From Nitrospirales bacterium (GTDB lineage Bacteria > Nitrospirota > Nitrospiria > Nitrospirales > UBA8639), in contig OY820905.2 of NCBI GenBank assembly GCA_963555755.3, positions 3,777,196-3,841,195 of the forward strand: a stretch of DNA of 64,000 nt, read 5' to 3'. Positions 1,447 to 62,386 of the stretch are shown here, one piece after another. The notes under the pieces were generated by a model. The model saw nothing but the letters and a program-made list of their open reading frames with translations, was not told the DNA's origin and ran no database searches. The stretch's first letter is position 1, and each line of letters begins with the position of its first letter. Position numbers and translations under genes: made by a program.

Positions 1447-1744
1447 AGCTTCCGAGCTTAAAGCCCAACAGGTTGTGGTGTCTGATGAGGCCTTAACAGT
1501 TGATCTCATCGATGGCAGAACATTATCTGTGCCTCTAGGCTGGTACCCTCGCTTGACTCATGCGTCACCACAGGAACGTGATAATTGGCGGTTCATTGGT
1601 GGGGGCGAGGGAATTCATTGGCCAGACCTGGATGAAGATATTAGCATTGAGAATCTGTGGTCTGGCAAACCTTCCGGCGAGAGTCAAGAATCGTTCAAAC
1701 ACTGGCTGAGCACTCGCCAATCTTCCAGCAAGTCGCCATCTTAG
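1427..1744 (+). CDS. DUF2442-domain protein (partner of DUF4160, TA-like pair)
   Basis: LTVDLIDGRTLSVPLGWYPRL...GIHWPDLDEDIS signature. Confidence 0.9.
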   Translation: MSTSKIEASELKAQQVVVSDEALTVDLIDGRTLSVPLGWYPRLTHASPQERDNWRFIGGGEGIHWPDLDEDISIENLWSGKPSGESQESFKHWLSTRQSSSKSPS

Positions 1745-1860
1745 TTTTCCAGTGCACGCCAAAGGGGGCCGATTCGGGACTGCGGCTCCGCCGCACCCAA
1801 CGCAAAAGAAATGTTCTATTAGGTATCGAATGAAATAGCTGTGTCGGGCAATGTCCATAT

Positions 1861-2967
1861 TGTCATTCCCGACATTTTTAATCGGGAATCCAGGTTTGTT
1901 TTTCTTTGCTATAGGTAGGTTGGAGGAATGGGTTTCTCTGCGGAATTATTAGATGCCGGGTTTCGCCACGGCGCGACGAGGCACTTTTGTTTCGGCAAAC
2001 GTGCCCAACACCAGTGTGCCGCGCATGTTCAACAGCTTGAGGGTGCAAGTCCCTTTGACAACCTGATGGAGGTGAAGTCATAGCGAAGCGCAAGGGCGTC
2101 GTCGTGAGGCGGGGTCTGAAGGAAGCGTAGAGCAACGGCGCGGGCCGATGAACAAGAACCAGATACGAGGCAGTCAGTGTCGGACGAGTGAGCTGGTTTT
2201 CACGAAGTCCATATCCATCAAGGGCATTGGGTGTAAATCTGGCGGTCGTGCGCTGAAGGCGGTTGAGCTTACCTCGGGAGACCTCTCGTCTGTCTTGGCA
2301 CCAAGACTGAGGATGGAGTGATCCATCTTGACCGGGTGAGAGGAGTCAGCAGAGGGCATAGTAGTCCCGGCAGGGACGAAGGCCTGAACGGTCCTGCGCA
2401 AGCAGGGTAAGAGGAGAGGCGAGGAGGCAGCGGCACTCATGAGCGACAAGCGGCTGAATAACCAGTTAACCCTGGCCTTCCCGACAGAGGATAGGGGTGA
2501 AGCCCTAAGGGCTGTCGAGGGAAGTGTCGAATCGCTTGCGGCGAACCGCCCAGTCGAACGCCCGGGTATGGGTGAGCAGTTGAGAGAAGTCTGTACTGGT
2601 GGCCAATCGCTTAACCCACCGAACCGCCGTATACGGACCCGTACGTACAGTGGTGTGACAGGGAAAGCGGGCGACCGCCTACCTATGTCGATTTTCCGCC
2701 CGTGCGCGGCCTTAAAGAGAATGATCAAAACGTTCGTCAGCAAGGCCGCAGGCGCTTTGGCGCGCGCAGCGTACGCGTTAGTACGTGAGCACGGCAAAGG
2801 GCCGAGAACGCCGCTGACGGACGTTTTGGTCATTCTCTTCCGGGTCCCTCCGCCTCCGCCCCGAATAAGAAGGCTCAGGAACTCGCGGAGTCTATCCTGA
2901 GTCTTGTCGAAGGACTCAAACAGCCCTCGCCGAAAAGTCGATTCGGGGCTGCGGCTCCGCCGCATCC
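1861..2967 (-). repeat. Long structured dispersed repeat (family B), copy carrying a nested intron and a nested ERIC-like element
   Basis: Near-identical to 3073-3360 once inserts 2014-2692 and about 2716-2828 are removed; includes an ATTCCC..GGGAAT palindrome. Confidence 0.8.
2014..2692 (+). mobile_element. ORF-less group II intron, class IIC-like, with internal deletion of the RT gene
   Basis: 5' GTGTG. Domain V GAACCGCCGTATACGGACCCGTACGTACAGTGGTGTG with CGC triad. Domain VI ends ..GTCGAT. IEP N-terminal remnant from 2439 is fused to the C-terminal NRRIRTRTY. Confidence 0.9.
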
Positions 2968-3072
2968 GAAGGCGAGAAGACATTCAAGAAACAAACCAAG
3001 TTTTCAAACTGAGGCGTGGGGATAGCAAATCTCATCAAAACTCAATACTCATGCCTAACACCAAATCCATAT

Positions 3073-3360
3073 CGTCATTCCCGACATTTTTAATCGGGAA
3101 TCCAGGTTGGTTGTTTCTTTGCCAAAGGTAGGTTGGAGGAATTGGTCTCTCTGCGGAATTATTAGATGCCGGGTTTCGCCCCGGCGCGACGAGGCACTTT
3201 TGTTTCGGCAAAAGTGCCCAAAACCAATGTCGAATGTTCGCCCGTGTGCGGCCCTGCGGGTCCCTCCGCCTCCGCCCCGAATAAGATGGCGAGGGAAACT
3301 CGCCCTGCTCAAACAGCCCTCGCCGAGAGGTCGATTCGGGGGTGCGGCTCCGCCGCACCC
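3073..3360 (-). repeat. Family B dispersed repeat
   Basis: GGGTGCGGCGGAGCC...CTTTTGCCGAAACAAAAG...GGGGCGAAACCC consensus on the minus strand. Confidence 0.85.
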
Positions 3361-3442: not shown

Positions 3443-3703
3443 TTATTTATGAGCTTCGTAGTAGGAGCGAAGCACTGCATTCATGCGGGTCTGATACCCA
3501 CGTCCCTGGGCTTTGAACCATTGTAAAATATCAGCGTCAAACCGAATGGTGGTCGCTTCTTTAGGACGATCAGGATAGACTACTTTCGCGTGCTTCCAAA
3601 AATCATCCGGCAATGGCGGCCCCGGCGGTGCGTCTTTCCGCGTTTTGCCCTTCTTCGTCATCGCCTCTTCAAGGGTGATGGTGGTGATATTTTTCTTCTT
3701 CAT
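3443..3703 (-). CDS. brnA: BrnA family antitoxin
   Basis: TTIRFDADILQWFKAQGRGYQTRMNAVLR motif. Confidence 0.9.
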   Translation of the reverse strand: MKKKNITTITLEEAMTKKGKTRKDAPPGPPLPDDFWKHAKVVYPDRPKEATTIRFDADILQWFKAQGRGYQTRMNAVLRSYYEAHK

Positions 3704-3941
3704 CTCGTCCTGCCTTCCACGCTGAAATTATCCGGCGCTTCTCCCCGCGCCAAGTCCATACCACAACAAAATACTCTTCCTTATCAAAGCCAATGGATAT
3801 CGTCCGGCTTTCACCGTAATCTTGTCTGGTATCCACCCATTCCAACACCGGATTGGAAAAAATCCGCACCACATCCAGAAAATCTATACCATGCTTTTCA
3901 AAGTTGCTTTGCTGTTTGTCATTATCCCATTCAAAGGTCAC
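3669..3941 (-). CDS. brnT: BrnT family toxin
   Basis: FEWDNDK...NFEKHGIDF...RRIISAWKA; overlaps the antitoxin. Confidence 0.9.
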   Translation of the reverse strand: MTFEWDNDKQQSNFEKHGIDFLDVVRIFSNPVLEWVDTRQDYGESRTISIGFDKEEYFVVVWTWRGEKRRIISAWKAGRDEEEKYHHHHP

Positions 3942-4078: not shown

Positions 4079-4335
4079 GGGCGCGGCGGAGCCTCTGTCC
4101 CGAATCGACCCCTTCAGGGAGGGCCGTTTGAGTCCTTCGACAAGGCTCAGGATAGACTCCGTGAGTTCCTGAGCCATCTTGACCTGTCCTGAGTCATGTC
4201 GAAGGATTCGGGACGGAGGCGGAGGACCCGTAGGCCTGTCCTGAGCTGAGTCGAAGGAGCTGCGCACCGGCAGAAATGGTTTTGGTCCCTTTTGCCGAAA
4301 CAAAAGGGACTCGTCGTGCCGGGGCGAAACCCGGC
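4079..4335 (+). repeat. Family B dispersed repeat with nested CTTCGACAAGGCTCAGG palindromes
   Basis: Family consensus, in inverted orientation relative to 3073-3360. Confidence 0.85.
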
Positions 4336-4607
4336 TATAAAGAAATCACTACAAAAAACCCTGAACTCACGAGCCCCAAGCGATACCATTTTTCCTTGTG
4401 AATCAGAATGGCAAGTGCTTGTTGTGTGAAGGAGTCCATGGTGTGATTCGGCGGGTTATATCCGACACAGGTTTAAGTATAAGTTTTAGTCAGCGAAGGG
4501 GGTGTACGATAAAAAACGGAATGCTGGCTTGATGTCGTTATTTCTAGAAGGACAGGCACGAAGGGTAGAAGGTTTGTATCCCCCCTACCCTTCGCCATCA
4601 AAGTTGG

Positions 4608-6818
4608 TTATTGATACAGCTTCGTACTTTCTTCTTCCAGCACTGGGCTCGTGAGTTGATCCGCATTCATCTCAACTCGGAACCGTAAGTCACCAGGCTG
4701 AACCCCTTTTACCGTGATGGTAAATGTCAGACTGTCTTTCGGCTTCAGAATGGGAACCGGGTCAAAATCAACCATTTTCCCAACGAGCACGAGCCTGGCC
4801 GTCGAACCCGTGGAGGAGACATATTCCATGCCGTCCGGGATTGTGGCTGATATTTTGATGTTGGTGGCATTGGCCGTTCCCTGGTTCGTCACGACAATGG
4901 AAAAGGTTGTCTGGGTTCCGATTTCCACGGGATCCGGGTTGTCCATGACTTCAAGGAGCAAGGCAGCTATGCCTTTTACGGTGGTGCAGGCTTCGGCACG
5001 GTCTTGCAGGCCTCGTGCTGTTTGGACAGTGGCGATATTGCACTGCTGACCTTGGGAAACAGCCCGGCCTGTCACGCGCAATGTTTTCGATTCTCCTGGT
5101 GCAATTGTGCCAAGATTCCACGAGACGTCGTTCGTTTTGGGTGTGTGATTGCCAGGAGGATTCGCGCTTTCAAACGTGAAGCCACTAGGAAGCGTATCTT
5201 GAACGATCACCCCAGTGGTTGGAGCACTTCCCGGGTTACTGATTTCAATCGTATAGGTTGCGGTCGTTCCCAGGAATCGATTGTTCGGGCCAGTTTTCTT
5301 TATGGCAATACCGGGTTTCTCTATTACCAGATCACAGCTCGTTTGTTCACGTAAATTTCTTCCGCCGGTGACCCGGGCCACGTTGGTCACATTGCCAGGT
5401 TGGTTGGCCGTGAAGGTAAAGACTTCGGTGGCGGTGGATCCTGCCGGCAAGACGCCAACTTGCCGCGTCACCTCCGGCTGTCCGGAGACATGACTCATGC
5501 CGCTCGGGACAATATCGGTAATCTGAACATTCCTGGCTTCTCCGGTACCGGTGTTCGCAACGGTGACAGAGAATTCTGACGTATCTCCCACAATGACGGT
5601 TGAGGGACATGTTTGTGAAAGAGACAGAACCGGTTCGCCGACTGCCACGGAACACATTGATTGACTGCGCACCCCGTCATTGGCTTGAACGAGGACTTCG
5701 TTCACCGGCGTGCCGCTGGTTTTTGCTTTCATGCGAATAATGACTTGCCTGCTGGTTTGGGCTGGCAAATCGGTCAAATTCCAGATTAAAGTATTTCCGG
5801 ACATCTGAGCTTGTGGATTCGCACCAATGAATTCCATCCCGTCAGGAATAGTGTTGCGCAGGATCACATTGCTGGCATCCACTTGCGAGGAATTGGTGAT
5901 CGTGATCGGGAATTCGACGACATCGCCCACTACCAGGGCTGATGGACATTGTTGGTCTAAGGTGAGGGATGGAGCCATCCAAGTGGTGGATGTAACGCCT
6001 TTGGCAATGACTCCACTGACCGCCGGGCAACACGCGCGGTCGGATTCTTCCGGTTTGACTACGTTGATATGAACCGCATTGCCACCCGGTCCTGGGGTTT
6101 GTTGGGACAACGTGACTTGGGCTACCCCATTTTCATCGGTTTCGGTTATGGCTTCAGCTTGCCCACTTTCCTCAAAAAAAGCTTCAGGTCCGGACGTGAC
6201 ATTCCATTCCACTTGGTAGCCGACAAGAGGCGCACCGGTTGAGGCTTTTCTCACTGAAGTGGTCAATGTTCGAGACGTTCCCACTTTCTGTGTGCCATCA
6301 GCAGGGAATTCCCATTGCGCATCTAACCAGTGCATGACCGCAAAGGCTTTATGATCGCTTTTGTCCTTAATGTCCGGGACGACCGCGATGAGATGTGTGG
6401 TGCCTTCTTGAACAGAGGTCAAGGTTACGGTGGATTCCCCTCGGCGATTGGCTCCACCGATGGCGTAGGTGTTGTCGATCTTCAATGCCCGCTTCAAGGG
6501 ATCTTGTCCGACTTCGATAATATCCCCGACAGCACCGTTGGCCCGTGCGAGAATCCATTCTACCACGGCGCTATAGACGCGTTTCCCTTTGGCATCTTTG
6601 ACCACCGCGGTGAACGTTTGTTGGGTGTTGATAGGGCTGGTGTGTTGAGCAGGTTCGATGGTCACGGTGGCCGGAGGAGAGGTAGGATCAGACAAGGGTC
6701 TGCCATATTTGGTCACATGCTCACTGTACTGAATTCAGTTACAGCCTTGAGCCACGACCACGACAACAACGAGCCAATTCCGTAAAATGCGAGTTTCTAG
6801 CCAGCGATCCCGATTCAT
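4608..6818 (-). CDS. OmcB-like cysteine-containing DUF11-repeat lipoprotein with in-frame TGA at codon 28 (pseudogene or read-through)
   Basis: RBS GGAGGA and ATG at 6818; signal peptide LVVVVVVAQG-C; TGA at 6735-6737 in frame with the 702-aa ORF; repeated Ig-like DUF11 units (ITITN...VILRNTIPDG, TYTIEISNPG...VQDTLP) with paired Cys. Confidence 0.75.
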
Positions 6819-7528: not shown

Positions 7529-7742
7529 GGGTCTGTTGAATATTTCAGGTCCATGACCCATAGATGCTCCAGGTAAGCCTGCTCGCATCAGTGGGAGGGA
7601 ATGTTCAAAAAAGCATGCCCTGAGTCTTTCCGAAGGGTCTATCCAGCAAGGCCGCAGCCCTTTTGACGCGCGGAGCGTACTCTCAGTACGTGAGCACGGC
7701 AAAAGGGCGAGAACGTCGCTGGCGGCTTTTTTCAACATTCCC
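7529..7742 (+). mobile_element. MITE family G-A (ERIC-like core), 5-bp TSD CGAAG
   Basis: Ends GGGTCTGTTGAA/TTCAACATTCCC; CGAAG at 7524-7528 and 7743-7747. Confidence 0.9.
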
Positions 7743-9954: not shown

Positions 9955-10385
9955 GCGGGGTGTCGTCCCCGCACGACGAGGTCCTTTTGTTTTGGCAAAA
10001 GTACCTCGTCTGCAGGGGCGAAACCCTGCATTTAATAACTCCCTAAGAGACCCATTCCTCAACCCTACCTTCCGCAAAGAAGAACCCAACCTGGATTCCC
10101 GATAAAAAATGTCGGGAATGACTGATCAAATAGTTGCAGGCAAATTTTTTTCATCTCATATTTCTTGGTCTTATAGATTCCAAACGCCTTTCACCCCGCG
10201 TTGGGTGCGGCGGAGCCGCAGCCCCGAATCGACTTTTCGGCGAGGGCTGTTTGAGCGGAGCGAGTTCCCTCGCCATCTTATTCGGGGCGGAGGCGGAGGG
10301 ACCCGTAGGGCCGCGCACGGGCGAAAATGGTTTTGGCTCCTTTTGCCGAAACAAAAGGACCTCGTCTGCAGGGGCGAAACCCTGC
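9955..10385 (+). repeat. Two family B repeat units (9955-10122 and 10203-10385)
   Basis: Family consensus motifs and a CTGGATTCCCG..CGGGAATGAC palindrome. Confidence 0.8.
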
Positions 10386-10523
10386 ATAAGATAATTTCCA
10401 GCGAAGCAAATCACATTTTATTAGCCCTGTACCGGGGGTCGATGTTTTTGTTGAGGGCCTGAGCCCCCTTTGCTAGAATGCTGCTGCGGTGTTTTCTAAT
10501 CCAGGAGGTTTCCAAAGTCTCAC

Positions 10524-12201: not shown

Positions 12202-12769
12202 GTGACGAATGGGTTGAAAACGCATAAAGATCTGGATGCATGGAATAAAGCAATGGAACTTGTTGAATGGGGCTGTTGAATAATTCACGTCAATAGCCAA
12301 TAAACGCTCCATATGAGCCCCACACCGAGTGGGAGGGAATGTTGAAAAAAGTCCGTCCAGCAAGGCCGCAGCCCTTTTGACGCGCGGAGCGTACACTTTG
12401 TACGTGAGCACGGCAAAAGGGCGAGAACGCCGCTGGCGGCTTTTTTCAACATTCCCTGAATCTATTTACAGGCTAACGACTCAATACCCCAAGGAAGAGA
12501 CGTATGGATTAACGTTGCAGACAAGACGGTCGGCCATTTCGATCCCGAGCAATATTGCTGAGGGTGCGGCGAGAAAATCTAAAAAAGAATTTATTCAATT
12601 TTTGCATATAGCCCTCGGGTCGCTTGCGGAACTAGAAACACAACTTATATTAGCGGCCAGGTTGAAATTTATTAGAAACCAACATGAGTTGAACCAAGTT
12701 AATCAGTTAAGGCAAATTCTCTTAGGCCTCTTGCGTTATTTGAAGCGAAGATCGGCTGCCAGTGAATAG
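12202..12769 (+). pseudogene. Four-helix-bundle protein (23S rRNA IVS / Avd-like family) interrupted by a MITE
   Basis: KTHKDLDAWNKAMELVE + SIYRLT...RRSAISIPSNIAEG...SLAELETQL rejoin in frame when 12269-12456 and one TGAAT are removed. Confidence 0.9.
12269..12456 (+). mobile_element. MITE family G-A, 5-bp TSD TGAAT
   Basis: GGGGCTGTTGAA...TTCAACATTCCC; TGAAT at 12264-12268 and 12457-12461. Confidence 0.9.
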
Positions 12770-13729: not shown

Positions 13730-13958
13730 GGGGATGTTGAAAAATGGCGTCAGCCTACGCCGGAGCTTCGGCAGACAAGCCAGCGGCGTTCTCGGCTCTT
13801 TGTCGTGCTCACGTACTCACCCGTACGCTCCGCGCGCCAAAGCGCCTGGGGCCTTGCTGAGCGCACCTTTTTGAACATCCCCCTACAAGCTTGGCGTTTT
13901 ATAAGATGAACTACGCGATAACGGCATTATTAAAATTTAAGTACTATTCAATAGGCCC
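13730..13958 (-). mobile_element. MITE family G-A, reverse orientation, TSD AATGA
   Basis: AATGA at 13725-13729 and 13959-13963; core motifs reversed. Confidence 0.85.
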
Positions 13959-20935: not shown

Positions 20936-21161
20936 GGGAAGGTTGAAAAAGGGCGTCAGCCTACGCCGGAGCTTCGGCAGACAAGCCAGCAGCGTTCTCG
21001 GCCCTTTGTCGTGTTCACGTACTATGAGTACGCTCCGCGCGTCAAAGTGCCTGCCGCCTTGCTGAGCGAACCTTTTTGAACATCCCCAGTTGCTCTTGGC
21101 GTTTTATAAAATGAGTTACATGCGAACGGCAATATAGAAATTTTAATTATTCATCAGCCCC
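20936..21161 (-). mobile_element. MITE family G-A, reverse orientation, degenerate TSD
   Basis: Closely similar to 13730-13958; flanks GAGGC/AAGAC. Confidence 0.8.
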
Positions 21162-24083: not shown

Positions 24084-24297
24084 GTGCGCGGCGGAGCCGG
24101 AGTCCCGAATCGAGCCCTTCGGCGAGGGCTGTTTGAGCGCAGCGAGTTCCCGAGCCATCTTGATTTGGGACGGAGGCGGAGGCACCCCGGAGAGCCTGCT
24201 TCTGAGCAGGGTCGTAGGGGCCGCGTGCGGGCGAACATGGTTTTGGGCACTTTTGCCGAAACACAAGTGCCTCGTCGCGCGCGGGGGGGGCCGCATA
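24084..24297 (+). repeat. Family B dispersed repeat
   Basis: Family consensus. Confidence 0.8.
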
Positions 24298-24304
24298 CAA
24301 TTAA

Positions 24305-24445
24305 GGGCACCTCTAAAAACCGTCCTTTTCCGTGATGGCGGCGTCAGCCGCGTGCTCACATCCTCATGTATTCGCCCATACACTCCGGTTTTCCGCGCGC
24401 GGCTTCCTTGCCCTCACAAAAAATGCCTGGTTTGTAGAGGTGCCC
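24305..24445. mobile_element. 141-bp MITE with TTAA direct repeats
   Basis: GGGCACCTCTA..AAAC/GTTT..TAGAGGTGCCC; TTAA on both sides. Confidence 0.85.
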
Positions 24446-32673: not shown

Positions 32674-32906
32674 GGGGCGCGGCGGAGCCTCCGTCCAGAA
32701 TCGACCCCTCTGGCGAGGCTGTTTGAGTCCTTCGGCAAGGCTCAGGATAGACTCCGCGAGTTCCCGAGCCATCTTGATCTGTCCTGAGCCAGGTCGAAGG
32801 ATTCGGGATGGAGGTGGAGGAACCCGAAGGGCCGCGCACGGGCAAACATGGTGTTGGGCACTTTTGCCGAAACAACAGTGCCTCGTCGCGCGGGGGCGAA
32901 ACCCCG
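32674..32906 (+). repeat. Family B dispersed repeat
   Basis: Family consensus. Confidence 0.8.
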
Positions 32907-33007
32907 AATTTAATATTCGGACAAACCAAAAGGGAAAGGGCCAAGGAAGAAGAAAAGAGGGATGGGGGAATGAGAAGCTGTTTTTTAGAAAACCAGTTGG
33001 GAATAAA

Positions 33008-40572: not shown

Positions 40573-40786
40573 GGGGCTGTTGAATAATTCGCGTTAATAG
40601 CCAATACACGCTCCAGATGAGCCACCCATCGTCAGTGGGAGGGAATGTTCAAAAAAGCATGCCCTGAGTCTTTCCGAAGGGTCTATCCAGCAAGGCCGCA
40701 GCCCTTTTGACGCGCGGAGCGTACTCATAGTACGTGAGCACGGCAAAAGGGCGAGAACGCCGCTGGCGGCTTTTTTCAACATTCCC
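40573..40786 (+). mobile_element. MITE family G-A, TSD ATTAT, nested in a family L repeat (40496-40830)
   Basis: ATTAT at 40568-40572 and 40787-40791; the empty site with a single ATTAT is seen in the 39829-39944 copy. Confidence 0.9.
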
Positions 40787-44250: not shown

Positions 44251-44540
44251 GAGCCTGTCCCAGATTAGCCGAATCTACTGCGGATGTGCTGGAGGTGGCC
44301 AGATGTTCCGATCCTTTTCGGGGAATGTTGAAAAAGACCGCCAGCTGCGTTCTCGGGCTTTTGGCGTGCTCACGTACTCCGTGTACGCTCCGCGCGCTAA
44401 AAGCCCTGCGGCCTTGCTGGACGGCCTTTTTGAACATTACCCGTTTTCGTTGAATAGTCCCACTATTCGCCTCAAACGATCGAAACATCTGACTCAAACC
44501 AGCACATCCTCGTGACGATCGATAATCTCGGACAGGCTCC
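44250..44540. mobile_element. MITE family H (GGAGCCTGTC termini, TA target) with a central ERIC-like core
   Basis: TA|AGAGCCTGTCC...GGACAGGCTCC|TA at the rpmE stop codon. Confidence 0.85.
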
Positions 44541-58580: not shown

Positions 58581-58794
58581 CGGCCTGTTGAGTATATCAC
58601 TCCAACAGCCAATAAAAGCTCCAGATGAGCCACGCATCGTCAGTGGGAGGGAATGTTCAAAAAAGCATGCCCTGAGTCTTTCCGAATGGTCTATCCAGCA
58701 AGGCCGCAGCCATGTTGACGCGCGGAGCGGACTCATAGTACGTGAGCACGGCAAAAGGGCGAGAACGCCGCTGGCGGCTTTTTTCAACATTCCC
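58581..58794 (+). mobile_element. MITE family G-A, TSD CTTCA, nested in a heptamer hairpin
   Basis: CTTCA at 58576-58580 and 58795-58799. Confidence 0.88.
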
Positions 58795-58821: not shown

Positions 58822-58898
58822 GGGCCCATAGCTCAGTTGGTTAGAGCGGCGGACTCATAATCCGCTGGTCCCAGGTTCAAGTCCTGGTGGGCCCACCA
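58822..58898 (+). tRNA. tRNA with CAT anticodon, probably tRNA-Ile2 (lysidine)
   Basis: Cloverleaf, anticodon loop CTCATAA, encoded CCA; position after rpoD fits Ile2. Confidence 0.92.
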
Positions 58899-59847: not shown

Positions 59848-60136
59848 GAGCCTGTCAAAAATTAGATGGATCAACGTCGGGTGTCCTTGATTTGGCCATA
59901 TTTCCGATCCTTTTCGGGGAATGTTGAAAAAGACCGCCAGCTGCGTTCTCGGGCTTTTGGCGTGCTCACGTACTCCGTGTACGCTCCGCGCGCTAAAAGC
60001 CCTGCGGCCTTGCTGGACGGCCTTTTTGAACATTCCCCGTTTTCGTTGAATAGTCCCACTATTCGCCTCAAACGATCGAAACATCTGGCTCAAACCAGCA
60101 CCCTCTCATGACGATCGCTAATCTCGGACAGGCTCC
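59847..60136. mobile_element. MITE family H at a stop codon
   Basis: TA|GGAGCCTGTC...GACAGGCTCC|TA. Confidence 0.88.
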
Positions 60137-60214: not shown

Positions 60215-60677
60215 CATGGAGTGGGTGAGGTGATCGCTCGTTCTCGTTTGGGCCAGGGAATGAGAGGAAAGTCCGGACTCCAGAGGGCAGGGTGCTGGGT
60301 AACGCCCAGGCGGAGCAATCCGACATGAGCGCCACAGAAAACATACCGCCGAAGGCCTGGATCTTTCGAGATCCTTGGCCAGGTAAGGGTGAAATGGTGG
60401 GGTAAGAGCCCACCGCATTCATGGTGACATGAATGGCAGGGCAAGCATCACCCGGAGCAAGACCAAATAGGGGGACGAGCCGAACGGGTTTCTCTTCATT
60501 CCATATCTAGGCCCATCGGGATGAAGAGTGAAATCGTGATGTTCGGGGGAGGTCGGCCCGGCCGAAGTTCTCGGGTAGGTTGCTAGAAGCTCACGGTAAC
60601 GTGGGTTCCAGAGACATGATCACCCCCGTGGTCTTTTGGACTACGGGACAGAATCCGGCTTATCAACCCACTCCATG
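60215..60677 (+). ncRNA. rnpB: RNase P RNA (bacterial type A), unusually long
   Basis: GAGGAAAGTCCGGACTCC, GGAGCAAGACC, ACAGAATCCGGCTTAT; P1 helix CATGGAGTGGGT/ACCCACTCCATG. Confidence 0.95.
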
Positions 60678-60816
60678 TATTTCCTTTTTTGTCATTGCCA
60701 AACGGGAAATAATTCGTCATAGAGAGTGTCTCTAGGCGAATTTCACTTTTCATTTGTTTGACGAGGGTAGACCCCTTTGTTACCATGCCCCTACCTTTTT
60801 TCAGCATTCGAGTATA

Positions 60817-60894
60817 GTCCCCATCGTCTAGCCTGGCCTAGGACGCCGGCCTTTCAAGCCGGCAACACGGGTTCAAATCCCGTTGGGGACGCCA
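60817..60894 (+). tRNA. tRNA-Glu (TTC)
   Basis: Cloverleaf, GCCGGC-CTTTCAA-GCCGGC anticodon arm, CCA end. Confidence 0.95.
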
Positions 60895-62096: not shown

Positions 62097-62386
62097 GAGC
62101 CTGTCCAAGATTAGCGATCGTCACGAGGATGTGCTGGATTGAGTCAGATGTTTCGATCGTTTGAGGCGAATAGTGGGACTATTCAACGAAAACGGGGAAG
62201 GTTGAAAAAAGGCGTCCAGCAAGGCCGCAGGGCTTTGGGCGCGCGGAGCGTACACGCAGTACGTGAGCACGCCAAAAGCCCGAGAACGCAGCTGGCGGTC
62301 TTTTTCAACCTTCCCCGAAAAGGATCGGAAGATCTGGCCACATCCAGCGCATCAACCGTAGATCTGTCTAATCTTGAACAGGTTGC
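62096..62386. mobile_element. MITE family H, reverse orientation, degenerate right end
   Basis: Reverse complement of 44250-44540; begins at the TAG of the upstream gene. Confidence 0.85.

Follow-up and report, generated by a model that had tools for sequence, protein, structure and literature searches.

How does a group II intron that has lost its reverse transcriptase (RT) gene come to stand at one exact point of a repeat scattered over a chromosome? The question is posed by a 679-nucleotide (nt) element at positions 2014 to 2692 of a 64,000-nt stretch of DNA from a Nitrospirales bacterium (GenBank assembly GCA_963555755.3, contig OY820905.2, positions 3,777,196 to 3,841,195), here called the window. 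An earlier note, made from the letters alone, read the element as a group IIC intron without RT, mobilized in trans, that uses a high-copy repeat as a renewable and harmless homing site. We conclude, with good confidence, that the window intron belongs to a non-autonomous family of group IIC introns, devoid of the open reading frame (ORF) for an intron-encoded protein, that home to a hairpin of the dispersed repeat by a proposed trans mechanism. Its parts are as follows.

2014-2692, plus strand: complete ORF-less group IIC intron, 679 nt (Rfam matches; full-length alignment with 16 other mini copies at 86 to 94% identity)

2014-2277, plus strand: domain I (RF02001 match at 2098-2268; RNAalifold consensus; closing helix 2019-2023/2273-2277)

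2194-2200, plus strand: exon-binding site 1 (EBS1, UGGUUUU), a terminal loop closed by the stem GUGA/UCAC and unpaired in the RF02001 model

2278-2347, plus strand: domain II (helices 14 to 16), with a GUGA-capped hairpin that covaries strongly among copies

2354-2385, plus strand: domain III (3' portion of the RF01998 match; helices 17 and 18)

2389-2620, plus strand: remnant of domain IV with the ORF stub and the deletion junction (alignments and consensus fold)

2439-2609, plus strand: remnant of the gene for the intron-encoded protein (alignment with the full-length parents L010, L011, and L025)

2623-2654, plus strand: domain V, with the CGC triad C2625 G2626 C2627 and a conserved G.U wobble (RF00029 match and consensus fold)

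2656-2690, plus strand: domain VI, with a bulged A at 2685 (7 nt before the intron's 3' end) as branch point

The intron opens with GTGTG (2014-2018) and closes with GTCGAT (2687-2692), of which the last two letters, at 2691-2692, are AT; a 5' GUGYG, a 3' AY, and a bulged A 7 to 8 nt from the end are what a group II intron requires, and the window intron has all three. The CGC triad is typical of IIC introns. These ends and the near-canonical domain V with its triad lie where the earlier note had placed them. Two Rfam models for the upstream domains match well above their gathering scores, RF02001 (group-II-D1D4-3) with 129.5 bits at 2098-2268 (gathering score 32) and RF01998 (group-II-D1D4-1) with 56 bits at 2308-2384 (gathering score 35), and all six ribozyme domains could be placed in a fold predicted from 17 aligned copies. 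We relied on the alignment because a single-sequence thermodynamic fold of the intron, with z = -1.6 only, is uninformative for a 679-nt RNA.

RNAalifold predicts a consensus of 196 pairs from this alignment of mini copies (A3). Although a consensus derived from the alignment on which it is tested is favored by the test, the margin is large: 99.3% of the cells are standard pairs, against 34 to 43% when the partners are slid by one to three columns; 18 pairs have changed on both sides, against 2 to 5 in the slid controls; and none of 500 shuffles reached the observed values. Three of the pairs changed on both sides among the mini copies belong to helix 16 of domain II, and the upper stem of domain VI covaries between GCGG/CCGC and GUCC/GGAC. 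The helices of domains V and VI are fully retained in the 17 mini copies, and the consensus helices correspond to those of the Rfam models. As modeled from the alignment, the ribozyme fold is under selection in the mini copies.

In domain IV, the gene for the intron-encoded protein is reduced to 52 N-terminal codons (2439-2594, starting from the ATG at 2439), followed directly by its last 4 codons and the former stop (2595-2609), in agreement with the earlier description of a gene cut to its first ~50 and last codons and fused at about 2594. Compared to full-length parents, ~1.2 kb of domain IV is gone at the junction (~2594/2595), and the window copy keeps parental positions 1 to ~565 plus the last ~95 nt in the alignment. 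These parents were reached through the stub itself: as an 84-amino-acid (aa) query, it returned only short proteins, either the same fused ORF or N-terminal RT fragments, and the contigs of the latter fragments led to full-length introns of 1871 to 1893 nt (L010 and L011, then L025, L132, and L133). The frame of the remnant runs on through domain V because the parental stop codon is mutated, and its motif 'NRRIRTRTYSGV' is domain V translated as codons. A Pfam scan found no domain in the remnant, the only sizeable ORF on the intron strand (start 2439), as expected from the claimed absence of RT motifs.

The window intron has many relatives. Mini copies of 651 to 679 nt (L001, L007-9, L018, L037, L048, L075, L086, L088, L090, L102, L107, L112, L117, L126, and L129), 17 of them complete and 20 if incomplete ones are counted, are spread over separate loci of six or more Nitrospirota genomes or assemblies, drawn from ENA and NCBI, and all share the region of the deletion junction. 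The closest to the window copy is L001, from the same sample and 94% identical; L018, L037, and L088 come from one metagenome-assembled genome (MAG); and a single 4.63-Mb contig, CBDFIV010000015.1, carries at least 10 complete mini-introns, nine of them in the alignment. Domain II hairpins define sub-families that differ by compensatory changes (AGGGA/UCUCU versus ACUGA/UCAGU), with several copies of each in the CBDFIV genome. At L102 (5001-7251, minus strand), three introns of 660, 660, and 931 nt stand head to tail at a single repeat site. Recognition through the 5' exon would allow such an arrangement, as a first insertion leaves the 5' exon intact.

Some copies have further features. Similar junctions of one intron after another are present in two Acidobacteriota loci, L046 and L115, and in L093, from a Nitrospirae MAG. 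L002 to L005 (e.g., L002 at ~1798-2300), which represent one locus in five assemblies, hold a mini copy that lacks the first ~176 nt and has no recognizable repeat hairpin upstream; it is either a 5'-truncated insertion or the product of a later deletion. In CBDFIV010000015.1, a 989-bp insertion sequence (IS) interrupts two introns, L065 (~5634-6626, at intron position ~96) and L072 (~5766-6754, at intron position ~225). The IS has terminal inverted repeats (CCCTGCATACCGGCTTAACTCCAGTTGC...) and a 318-aa transposase-like ORF, and its two copies are 99.7% identical; in L072, GTAAATCT is directly repeated around it, consistent with an 8-bp target duplication.

What the copies share outside the intron is their position in a repeat, termed family B, whose parts in the window are as follows.

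1941-2013, plus strand: 5' exon, the 5' half of a family B repeat, with a small hairpin (CCGGGTTTCGCCACGG, 1957-1972) ahead of the target hairpin (colinear with uninterrupted copies)

1980-2005, plus strand: target hairpin, GGCACTTTTG / TTTCGG / CAAACGTGCC, with one T.C mismatch in the window copy

2007-2013, plus strand: intron-binding site 1 (IBS1), AACACCA (repeat consensus AAAACCA), complementary to the EBS1 loop UGGUUUU

2693-2711, plus strand: 3' exon, in which the family B repeat continues (TTTCCGCCCGTGCGCGGCC; alignment to other copies)

2840-2990, plus strand: remaining 3' portion of the family B repeat (alignment to other copies)

3110-3275 (plus strand), 4240-4385 (minus), 10285-10450 (minus), 24200-24330 (minus), and 32810-32960 (minus): uninterrupted family B copies (alignment)

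When the two exons are joined, they align colinearly and without a gap to the five uninterrupted copies in the window. This bears out the earlier claim that the exon junction recreates the intact repeat; the 19-mer on which that claim was built is found exactly at 10316-10334 (minus strand), and four matches with up to 3 mismatches were found where 0.03 are expected by chance. The outer pairs of the hairpin stem covary among repeat copies (CAC/GTG, TCC/GGA, and CCC/GGG). The intron lies 8 nt past the full stem, or the previously noted 9 nt if the stem is measured as it was then drawn. Sought in other loci and genomes, at least 17 complete mini-introns and at least six full-length copies turned up at the same repeat position. 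Among occupied sites of both kinds, all 28 that could be read lie 8 to 9 nt behind the same repeat hairpin, after CCAAAACCA(N), as expected if the repeat is the homing site.

The EBS1 loop covaries with the exact insertion point, including a shift of 1 nt. Introns with EBS1 CUGGUUUUC (the window copy, L011, and others) are inserted at ...AAAACCA| and begin with GUGUG; those with CAUGGAUUC (L001, L008, L010, L018, and others) are inserted one base further on, at ...AACCAU|, and begin with GUGCG; L025, with CCUGGAUUC, lies at ...AACCAG|. If EBS1 sets the site, a change of EBS1 from CUGGUUUU to CAUGGAUU predicts an insertion point moved by 1 nt. EBS1 can form 7 bp with the IBS1 of the repeat consensus; the window copy forms 6 of the 7, with 4 contiguous bp. 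A stem-loop and a short IBS1 make up the target, with no predicted IBS2-EBS2 pairing, and no extra domain I hairpin that could hold an EBS2 is present in the predicted fold. The target matches neither of the types known for IIC introns, intrinsic terminators and attC sites; behind the repeat hairpin comes CCAAAACCA and no T-run. One full-length intron only 76% identical to the others (L027, 2329-4220, plus strand) occupies the same repeat position (...AAAACCAG|), and no pairing was found between the loop in its EBS1 region and its exon ...AAAACCAG|.

One empty repeat copy in the window (hairpin and AAAACCA at 3197-3226) has ~8 extra bases exactly at the insertion point (3227-3233). These include ATGTCGA, i.e., the last bases of the intron (ATGTCGAT) minus the final T, and the other empty copies have no such insert; it may be the footprint of a lost or extremely 5'-truncated intron.

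The class of the lineage was judged on its full-length relatives by proxy scores in place of a phylogeny, with a PDB set comprising classes other than D, E, and F. The L011 protein, read through its single frameshift, aligns over residues 49 to 458 with GsI-IIC RT (6AR1; E = 5.7e-132, 443.6 bits for the whole sequence) and scores 306 bits with the IIC protein of Eubacterium rectale (7UIM), 136 with LtrA (IIA), and 121 with TeI4h (IIB). The parental protein matches TIGR04416 at 393 bits, and its 459 aa contain only RVT_1 and GIIM; no endonuclease domain was found by Pfam in this protein of the full-length relatives. By these sequence scores, the intron-encoded protein of the lineage is assigned to class C, and class C proteins pair one-to-one with IIC ribozymes (PMC4424553). 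The same review allows a CGC triad in domain V of some introns (PMC4424553).

The behavior of relatives outside Nitrospirales agrees with the IIC assignment of the earlier note. A scan with a 26-nt domain I signature, restricted to one genome per species, gave 118 stretches among the matches listed. Outside Nitrospirales, 83 copies could be read, mostly from Acidobacteriota, and in 70 of the 83 a hairpin of 6 bp or more ends no further than 14 nt before the intron; 59 of these 70 also have a T-run, i.e., they lie behind intrinsic terminators. Insertion behind terminators is textbook behavior for IIC introns (PMC3898094, PMC4424553). A related IIC intron of ~1346 nt in a Bryobacteraceae MAG (L124, 3960-5305, minus strand) also lies behind a T-run and seems to have lost part of the ORF independently.

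Did these introns move by themselves? The simplest alternative is that an intron is copied passively whenever its host repeat duplicates or transposes, which would explain why every copy stands at the same place in the same repeat. Pairwise identity in CBDFIV010000015.1 argues against it: it averages 97.2% for the introns, only 81% for the 70 nt upstream, and only 59% for the 60 nt downstream, and the introns of L107 and L117 are 100% identical in flanks of 74% and 57%. We rejected passive copying on this contrast. Neither do the remaining observations fit, since hairpin stems and 3' halves belong to different repeat subtypes, the insertion point moves by 1 nt with EBS1, head-to-tail copies share the L102 site, full-length introns use the same position, and a strand bias described below is seen at occupied sites and not at empty ones; we regard passive spread as very improbable. 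A related idea, quite improbable in our view, is that repeat and intron form a co-evolving pair resembling short and long interspersed nuclear elements (SINE/LINE), with the repeat copied by the intron RT, e.g., from read-through or unspliced transcripts. Such an intron would both make and consume its own landing pads, and the pairing could explain the co-occurrence of the two in Nitrospirales and the 7-bp match of EBS1 to the repeat consensus. The repeats, however, look older and more diverged than the introns, and empty copies show no bias in orientation.

Two other explanations would make the element something other than a mobile ribozyme. Only one intron copy is present in the 64-kb window, as would be the case for a one-off insertion whose ORF was lost in place and to which nothing at repeat sites is related; this, the reading that the earlier note had set against its own, is refuted by the mini-introns and full-length introns that occupy this repeat position elsewhere, in other loci and genomes, and we give it practically no credence. 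The retained small ORF (84 to 153 aa) might instead encode a functional protein, so that the element would not be truly ORF-less. Thousands of class C proteins conserve its first 48 residues (MSDKRLNNQL..LAFPTE..GEA), and the frame is open in the window (2439-2900) and in several copies. Frameshifts interrupt the remnant stretch of other copies (P0006, P0009, and P0015-P0023), though, either with a return to the frame (P0006 and P0009) or with an early end (P0017 and P0019), so that the remnant is not a conserved coding sequence. Moreover, its 3' part consists of a translated domain V and then of exon sequence, which varies by locus; the stretch is out of frame in the CBDFIV full-length copies; and its conservation is better explained by the RNA structure of domain IVa. 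The candidate protein was rejected on the frameshifts and the lack of a Pfam domain, and we hold it to be highly improbable. A common deletion at different loci, introns far more alike than their flanks, and compensatory changes in the fold point instead to a non-autonomous element that is mobilized, as the earlier note had supposed.

A source of protein is at hand in related genomes. Full-length parents with an RT were found in other genomes, including the CBDFIV genome, which also carries mini-introns. Intact proteins of 459 aa and 89 to 94% identity are encoded by this clade (P0143-P0147, P0149, and P0150), P0150 by L132, an intact full-length intron at the same repeat site. In the CBDFIV genome, an RT/X frame of 416 aa is open in at least two full-length copies (L133, with an apparently intact ribozyme, and L065), which are accompanied by at least 13 further copies that are not full-length (10 complete mini-introns, 1 interrupted by the IS, and 2 cut by block ends); non-autonomous copies outnumber autonomous ones ~five to one among the matches listed. 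Because of these open RT frames, supply of the protein in trans is plausible, and it has been shown by experiment for introns of Thermosynechococcus elongatus (PMC2882425). Most proteins of the clade are 459 aa long and have a conserved 48-aa N-terminal extension that is absent from GsI-IIC RT. In the CBDFIV full-length copies (L133 and L065), this stretch is out of frame, and the open frame of 416 aa starts from MGAQLMEAV, which makes the true start codon of the clade proteins uncertain.

In the explanation that we favor, homing of a non-autonomous IIC family to the repeat hairpin, a full-length IIC intron of ~1.87 kb would have lost ~1.2 kb of its RT/maturase gene in domain IV, leaving a derivative in which the six ribozyme domains and the 5' portion of domain IV survive. 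Read-through from an upstream gene in the same orientation would transcribe the mini-intron, which would be spliced and bound by the RT/maturase of full-length copies elsewhere in the genome, and the resulting particle would reverse-splice into single-stranded DNA. It would read its target as other IIC introns do, by a DNA hairpin, a short IBS1-EBS1 pairing 8 to 9 nt downstream, and one IBS3 base; in Nitrospirales, this target would be the conserved stem-loop of a ~200-nt dispersed intergenic repeat (...CTTTTGTTTCGGCAAAAG..CCAAAACCA|T), to whose consensus EBS1 (UGGUUUU) may have been lengthened to fit. Insertion would take place in the lagging-strand template at replication forks, with complementary DNA (cDNA) synthesis primed by nascent DNA. 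The window copy has since acquired mutations and may have lost the ability to splice. Three parts of this picture are inferred: that the protein is supplied in trans, that the particle reverse-splices into single-stranded DNA, and that the host is not harmed; a harmless and renewable repeat site would be a reasonable reading.

Strand and gene context fit this scheme. In the five loci with gene calls, the intron lies 100 to 270 nt downstream of a co-oriented gene in all five, an arrangement that would allow read-through transcription. GC skew of the intron sense strand, with the intron excluded, exceeds +0.02 at 18 loci and falls under -0.02 at 2; by whole-locus skew, the sense strand is G-rich at 23 loci versus 1, compared to 7 versus 9 for empty repeat copies (binomial p = 3e-6, Fisher p = 3e-4), values obtained from blocks of only 2.5 to 8 kb. 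If the leading strand is G-rich, as the strand argument presumes from the usual G excess, the G-rich intron sense strand is the template of lagging-strand synthesis, and endonuclease-less introns are known to insert there (PMC4424553, PMC8919778).

Besides the short blocks and the presumed G excess behind the skew, several observations weigh against our explanation. The Rfam model of domains V and VI, RF00029 (Intron_gpII), scores 35.4 bits at 2622-2692 (E = 4.6e-5 on 1 kb) in a permissive scan and misses its gathering score of 40; the intact relatives L086 and L133 likewise stay below that score, so that the shortfall is a trait of the lineage and not only of the window copy. Variants of EBS1, domain VI, and the 5' end form a mosaic across mini and full-length copies; a single deletion followed by simple descent is therefore insufficient, and recombination or recurrent deletion is needed. 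Several full-length copies are defective: a stop codon interrupts L010, frameshifts interrupt L011 and L027, and the IS lies in domain I of L065; the 438-aa ORF of L025, from the MFD06229 genome, has a frameshift near its C terminus. The coexistence of a related RT gene with mini-introns was seen for the CBDFIV genome, in a search that covered genomes other than the window's own. As for splicing, Logan contigs from one metatranscriptome and three other runs were compared with window positions 1700-3000, a region so repetitive that the contigs are fragments of 90 to 540 nt. One metatranscriptome contig crosses the 5' junction in unspliced form. Where contigs pass over the intron, extra letters separate the two sides, and the joints are empty repeat copies of other loci; apparent "spliced" joints are indistinguishable from such copies.

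To the same side belong three traits of the window copy itself. The C at 2022 (A to C), unique among the 17 copies, breaks an A-U pair in the closing helix of domain I. The A at 2649 (G to A), also unique, creates a C2628.A2649 mismatch beside the triad; all 16 other copies and contigs of four sequencing runs have G there. IBS1, like the hairpin stem, has one mismatch to the repeat consensus. Is the window copy, then, a dead relic that decays in an intergenic repeat, whether its family is mobile now or was so formerly? Apart from these substitutions and mismatches, decay is suggested by the distance of the window copy from L001 of the same sample, to be set against 95 to 100% identity among CBDFIV copies, and by a second element inserted 19 nt downstream. 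On the other side, the ribozyme may tolerate a C.A mismatch and the loss of a single pair from a 5-bp helix; of the other 194 predicted pairs, all but one in domain IV are intact; and a second assembly of the same locus (L131) still has a near-identical copy. Whether this copy is still active or dead is, in our judgment, an even call; a dead copy would be compatible with mobility of the family, for the matter concerns the window copy alone.

The element beside the intron is unrelated to it and lies within the same repeat copy:

2712-2839, strand not assigned: second, unrelated palindromic dispersed element of ~125 nt, 19 nt past the intron (inverted self-match; at least nine other copies in the window)

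Further copies of this element lie near 7644-7725, 12346-12457, 13781-13871, 20987-21076, 40688-40769, 44323-44438, 58696-58777, 59919-60035, and 62217-62305. It is the most abundant repeat of the region, with a depth in metagenome contigs of up to 20 to 60x that of neighboring sequence. The same locus in ENA sample ERZ21829562 (L131) is 97 to 99% identical and lacks window stretches 1226-1390 and ~2995-3257, which reflects either strain-level repeat polymorphism or assembly collapse. Just past the repeat cluster is a BrnT/BrnA-type toxin-antitoxin pair (3443-3941, minus strand), its domains called on the L131 equivalents; L001 also has a BrnT gene. At the far end of the window, a class A bacterial RNase P RNA (60218-60678, plus strand, 304.7 bits) has a ~68-nt insertion in one helix (60481-60548, unaligned by the model) and is flanked by two tRNA genes (58822-58895 and 60817-60891, both plus strand).

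According to reviews, the targets used by group II introns of bacteria are of three types, namely specific homing sites, terminators, and attC sites, and ORF-less bacterial introns are rare (PMC4424553). The lineage adds a fourth type, the hairpin of a dispersed chromosomal repeat. Our literature search, whose coverage left out several key papers, found no IIC lineage specialized on a dispersed repeat and no proliferating ORF-less IIC family. Here, a IIC intron would behave like a miniature inverted-repeat transposable element (MITE), a "parasite of a parasite" that seems to have found a safe landing pad. Terminator-using relatives, full-length copies at the repeat, and mini-introns with an EBS1-driven shift of the site by 1 nt form a natural series. 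This series could be used to study the reading of DNA hairpins by IIC introns, a matter that PMC3898094 called unknown, and how retroelements exploit neutral "safe harbors" in compact genomes. Intron searches that depend on the RT will miss most copies in such genomes.

How does the family compare to known systems? Its endonuclease-less protein, with an end-to-end alignment to GsI-IIC RT, resembles those of B.h.I1 from Bacillus halodurans and GsI-IIC from Geobacillus stearothermophilus. With the terminator-using IIC introns, whose recognition rules are summarized in PMC3898094 and PMC4424553, it shares a small ribozyme, the CGC triad, a hairpin with a short IBS1 ~8 to 11 nt downstream, and a sense orientation behind a gene, and its Acidobacteriota relatives with the 26-nt domain I signature use hairpins with T-runs, i.e., terminators. 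Unlike these, the Nitrospirales introns use a hairpin taken from a dispersed repeat with no T-run after it, have a longer EBS1-IBS1 pairing (7 bp with the repeat consensus), and are mostly ORF-less. The IIC-attC introns of integrons are likewise a IIC sub-lineage that switched from terminators to another recurrent, multicopy DNA stem-loop (PMC4424553, PMC3001079), but the stem-loop in Nitrospirales is a chromosomal intergenic repeat and no link to integrons was seen, in an analysis that did not test for membership of the attC sub-lineage.

The closest parallel for the mini-introns comes from T. elongatus, whose ORF-less TeI3 introns (Mohr et al. 2010, PMC2882425) have common breakpoints in domain IV, remnants of both ORF ends, good EBS/IBS pairing, more ORF-less than ORF-containing copies, and related "driver" proteins in the same genome. 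TeI3 introns, however, are IIB/CL introns with endonuclease-containing proteins, sequence-specific homing sites of 20 to 35 bp, and experimentally demonstrated mobility in trans (PMC2882425), whereas the Nitrospirales introns are IIC, target a repeat hairpin, and are predicted from sequence to be mobile. Mobile elements that insert at a high-copy extragenic palindrome are also known from the IS elements and group II introns linked to repetitive extragenic palindromic (REP) sequences (PMC1525189). In Pseudomonas putida KT2440, two of nine group II intron copies (22%) were tabulated as REP-associated, without mechanistic analysis (PMC1525189); in the Nitrospirales type, by contrast, all 28 readable copies stand at one exact position, matched by EBS1.

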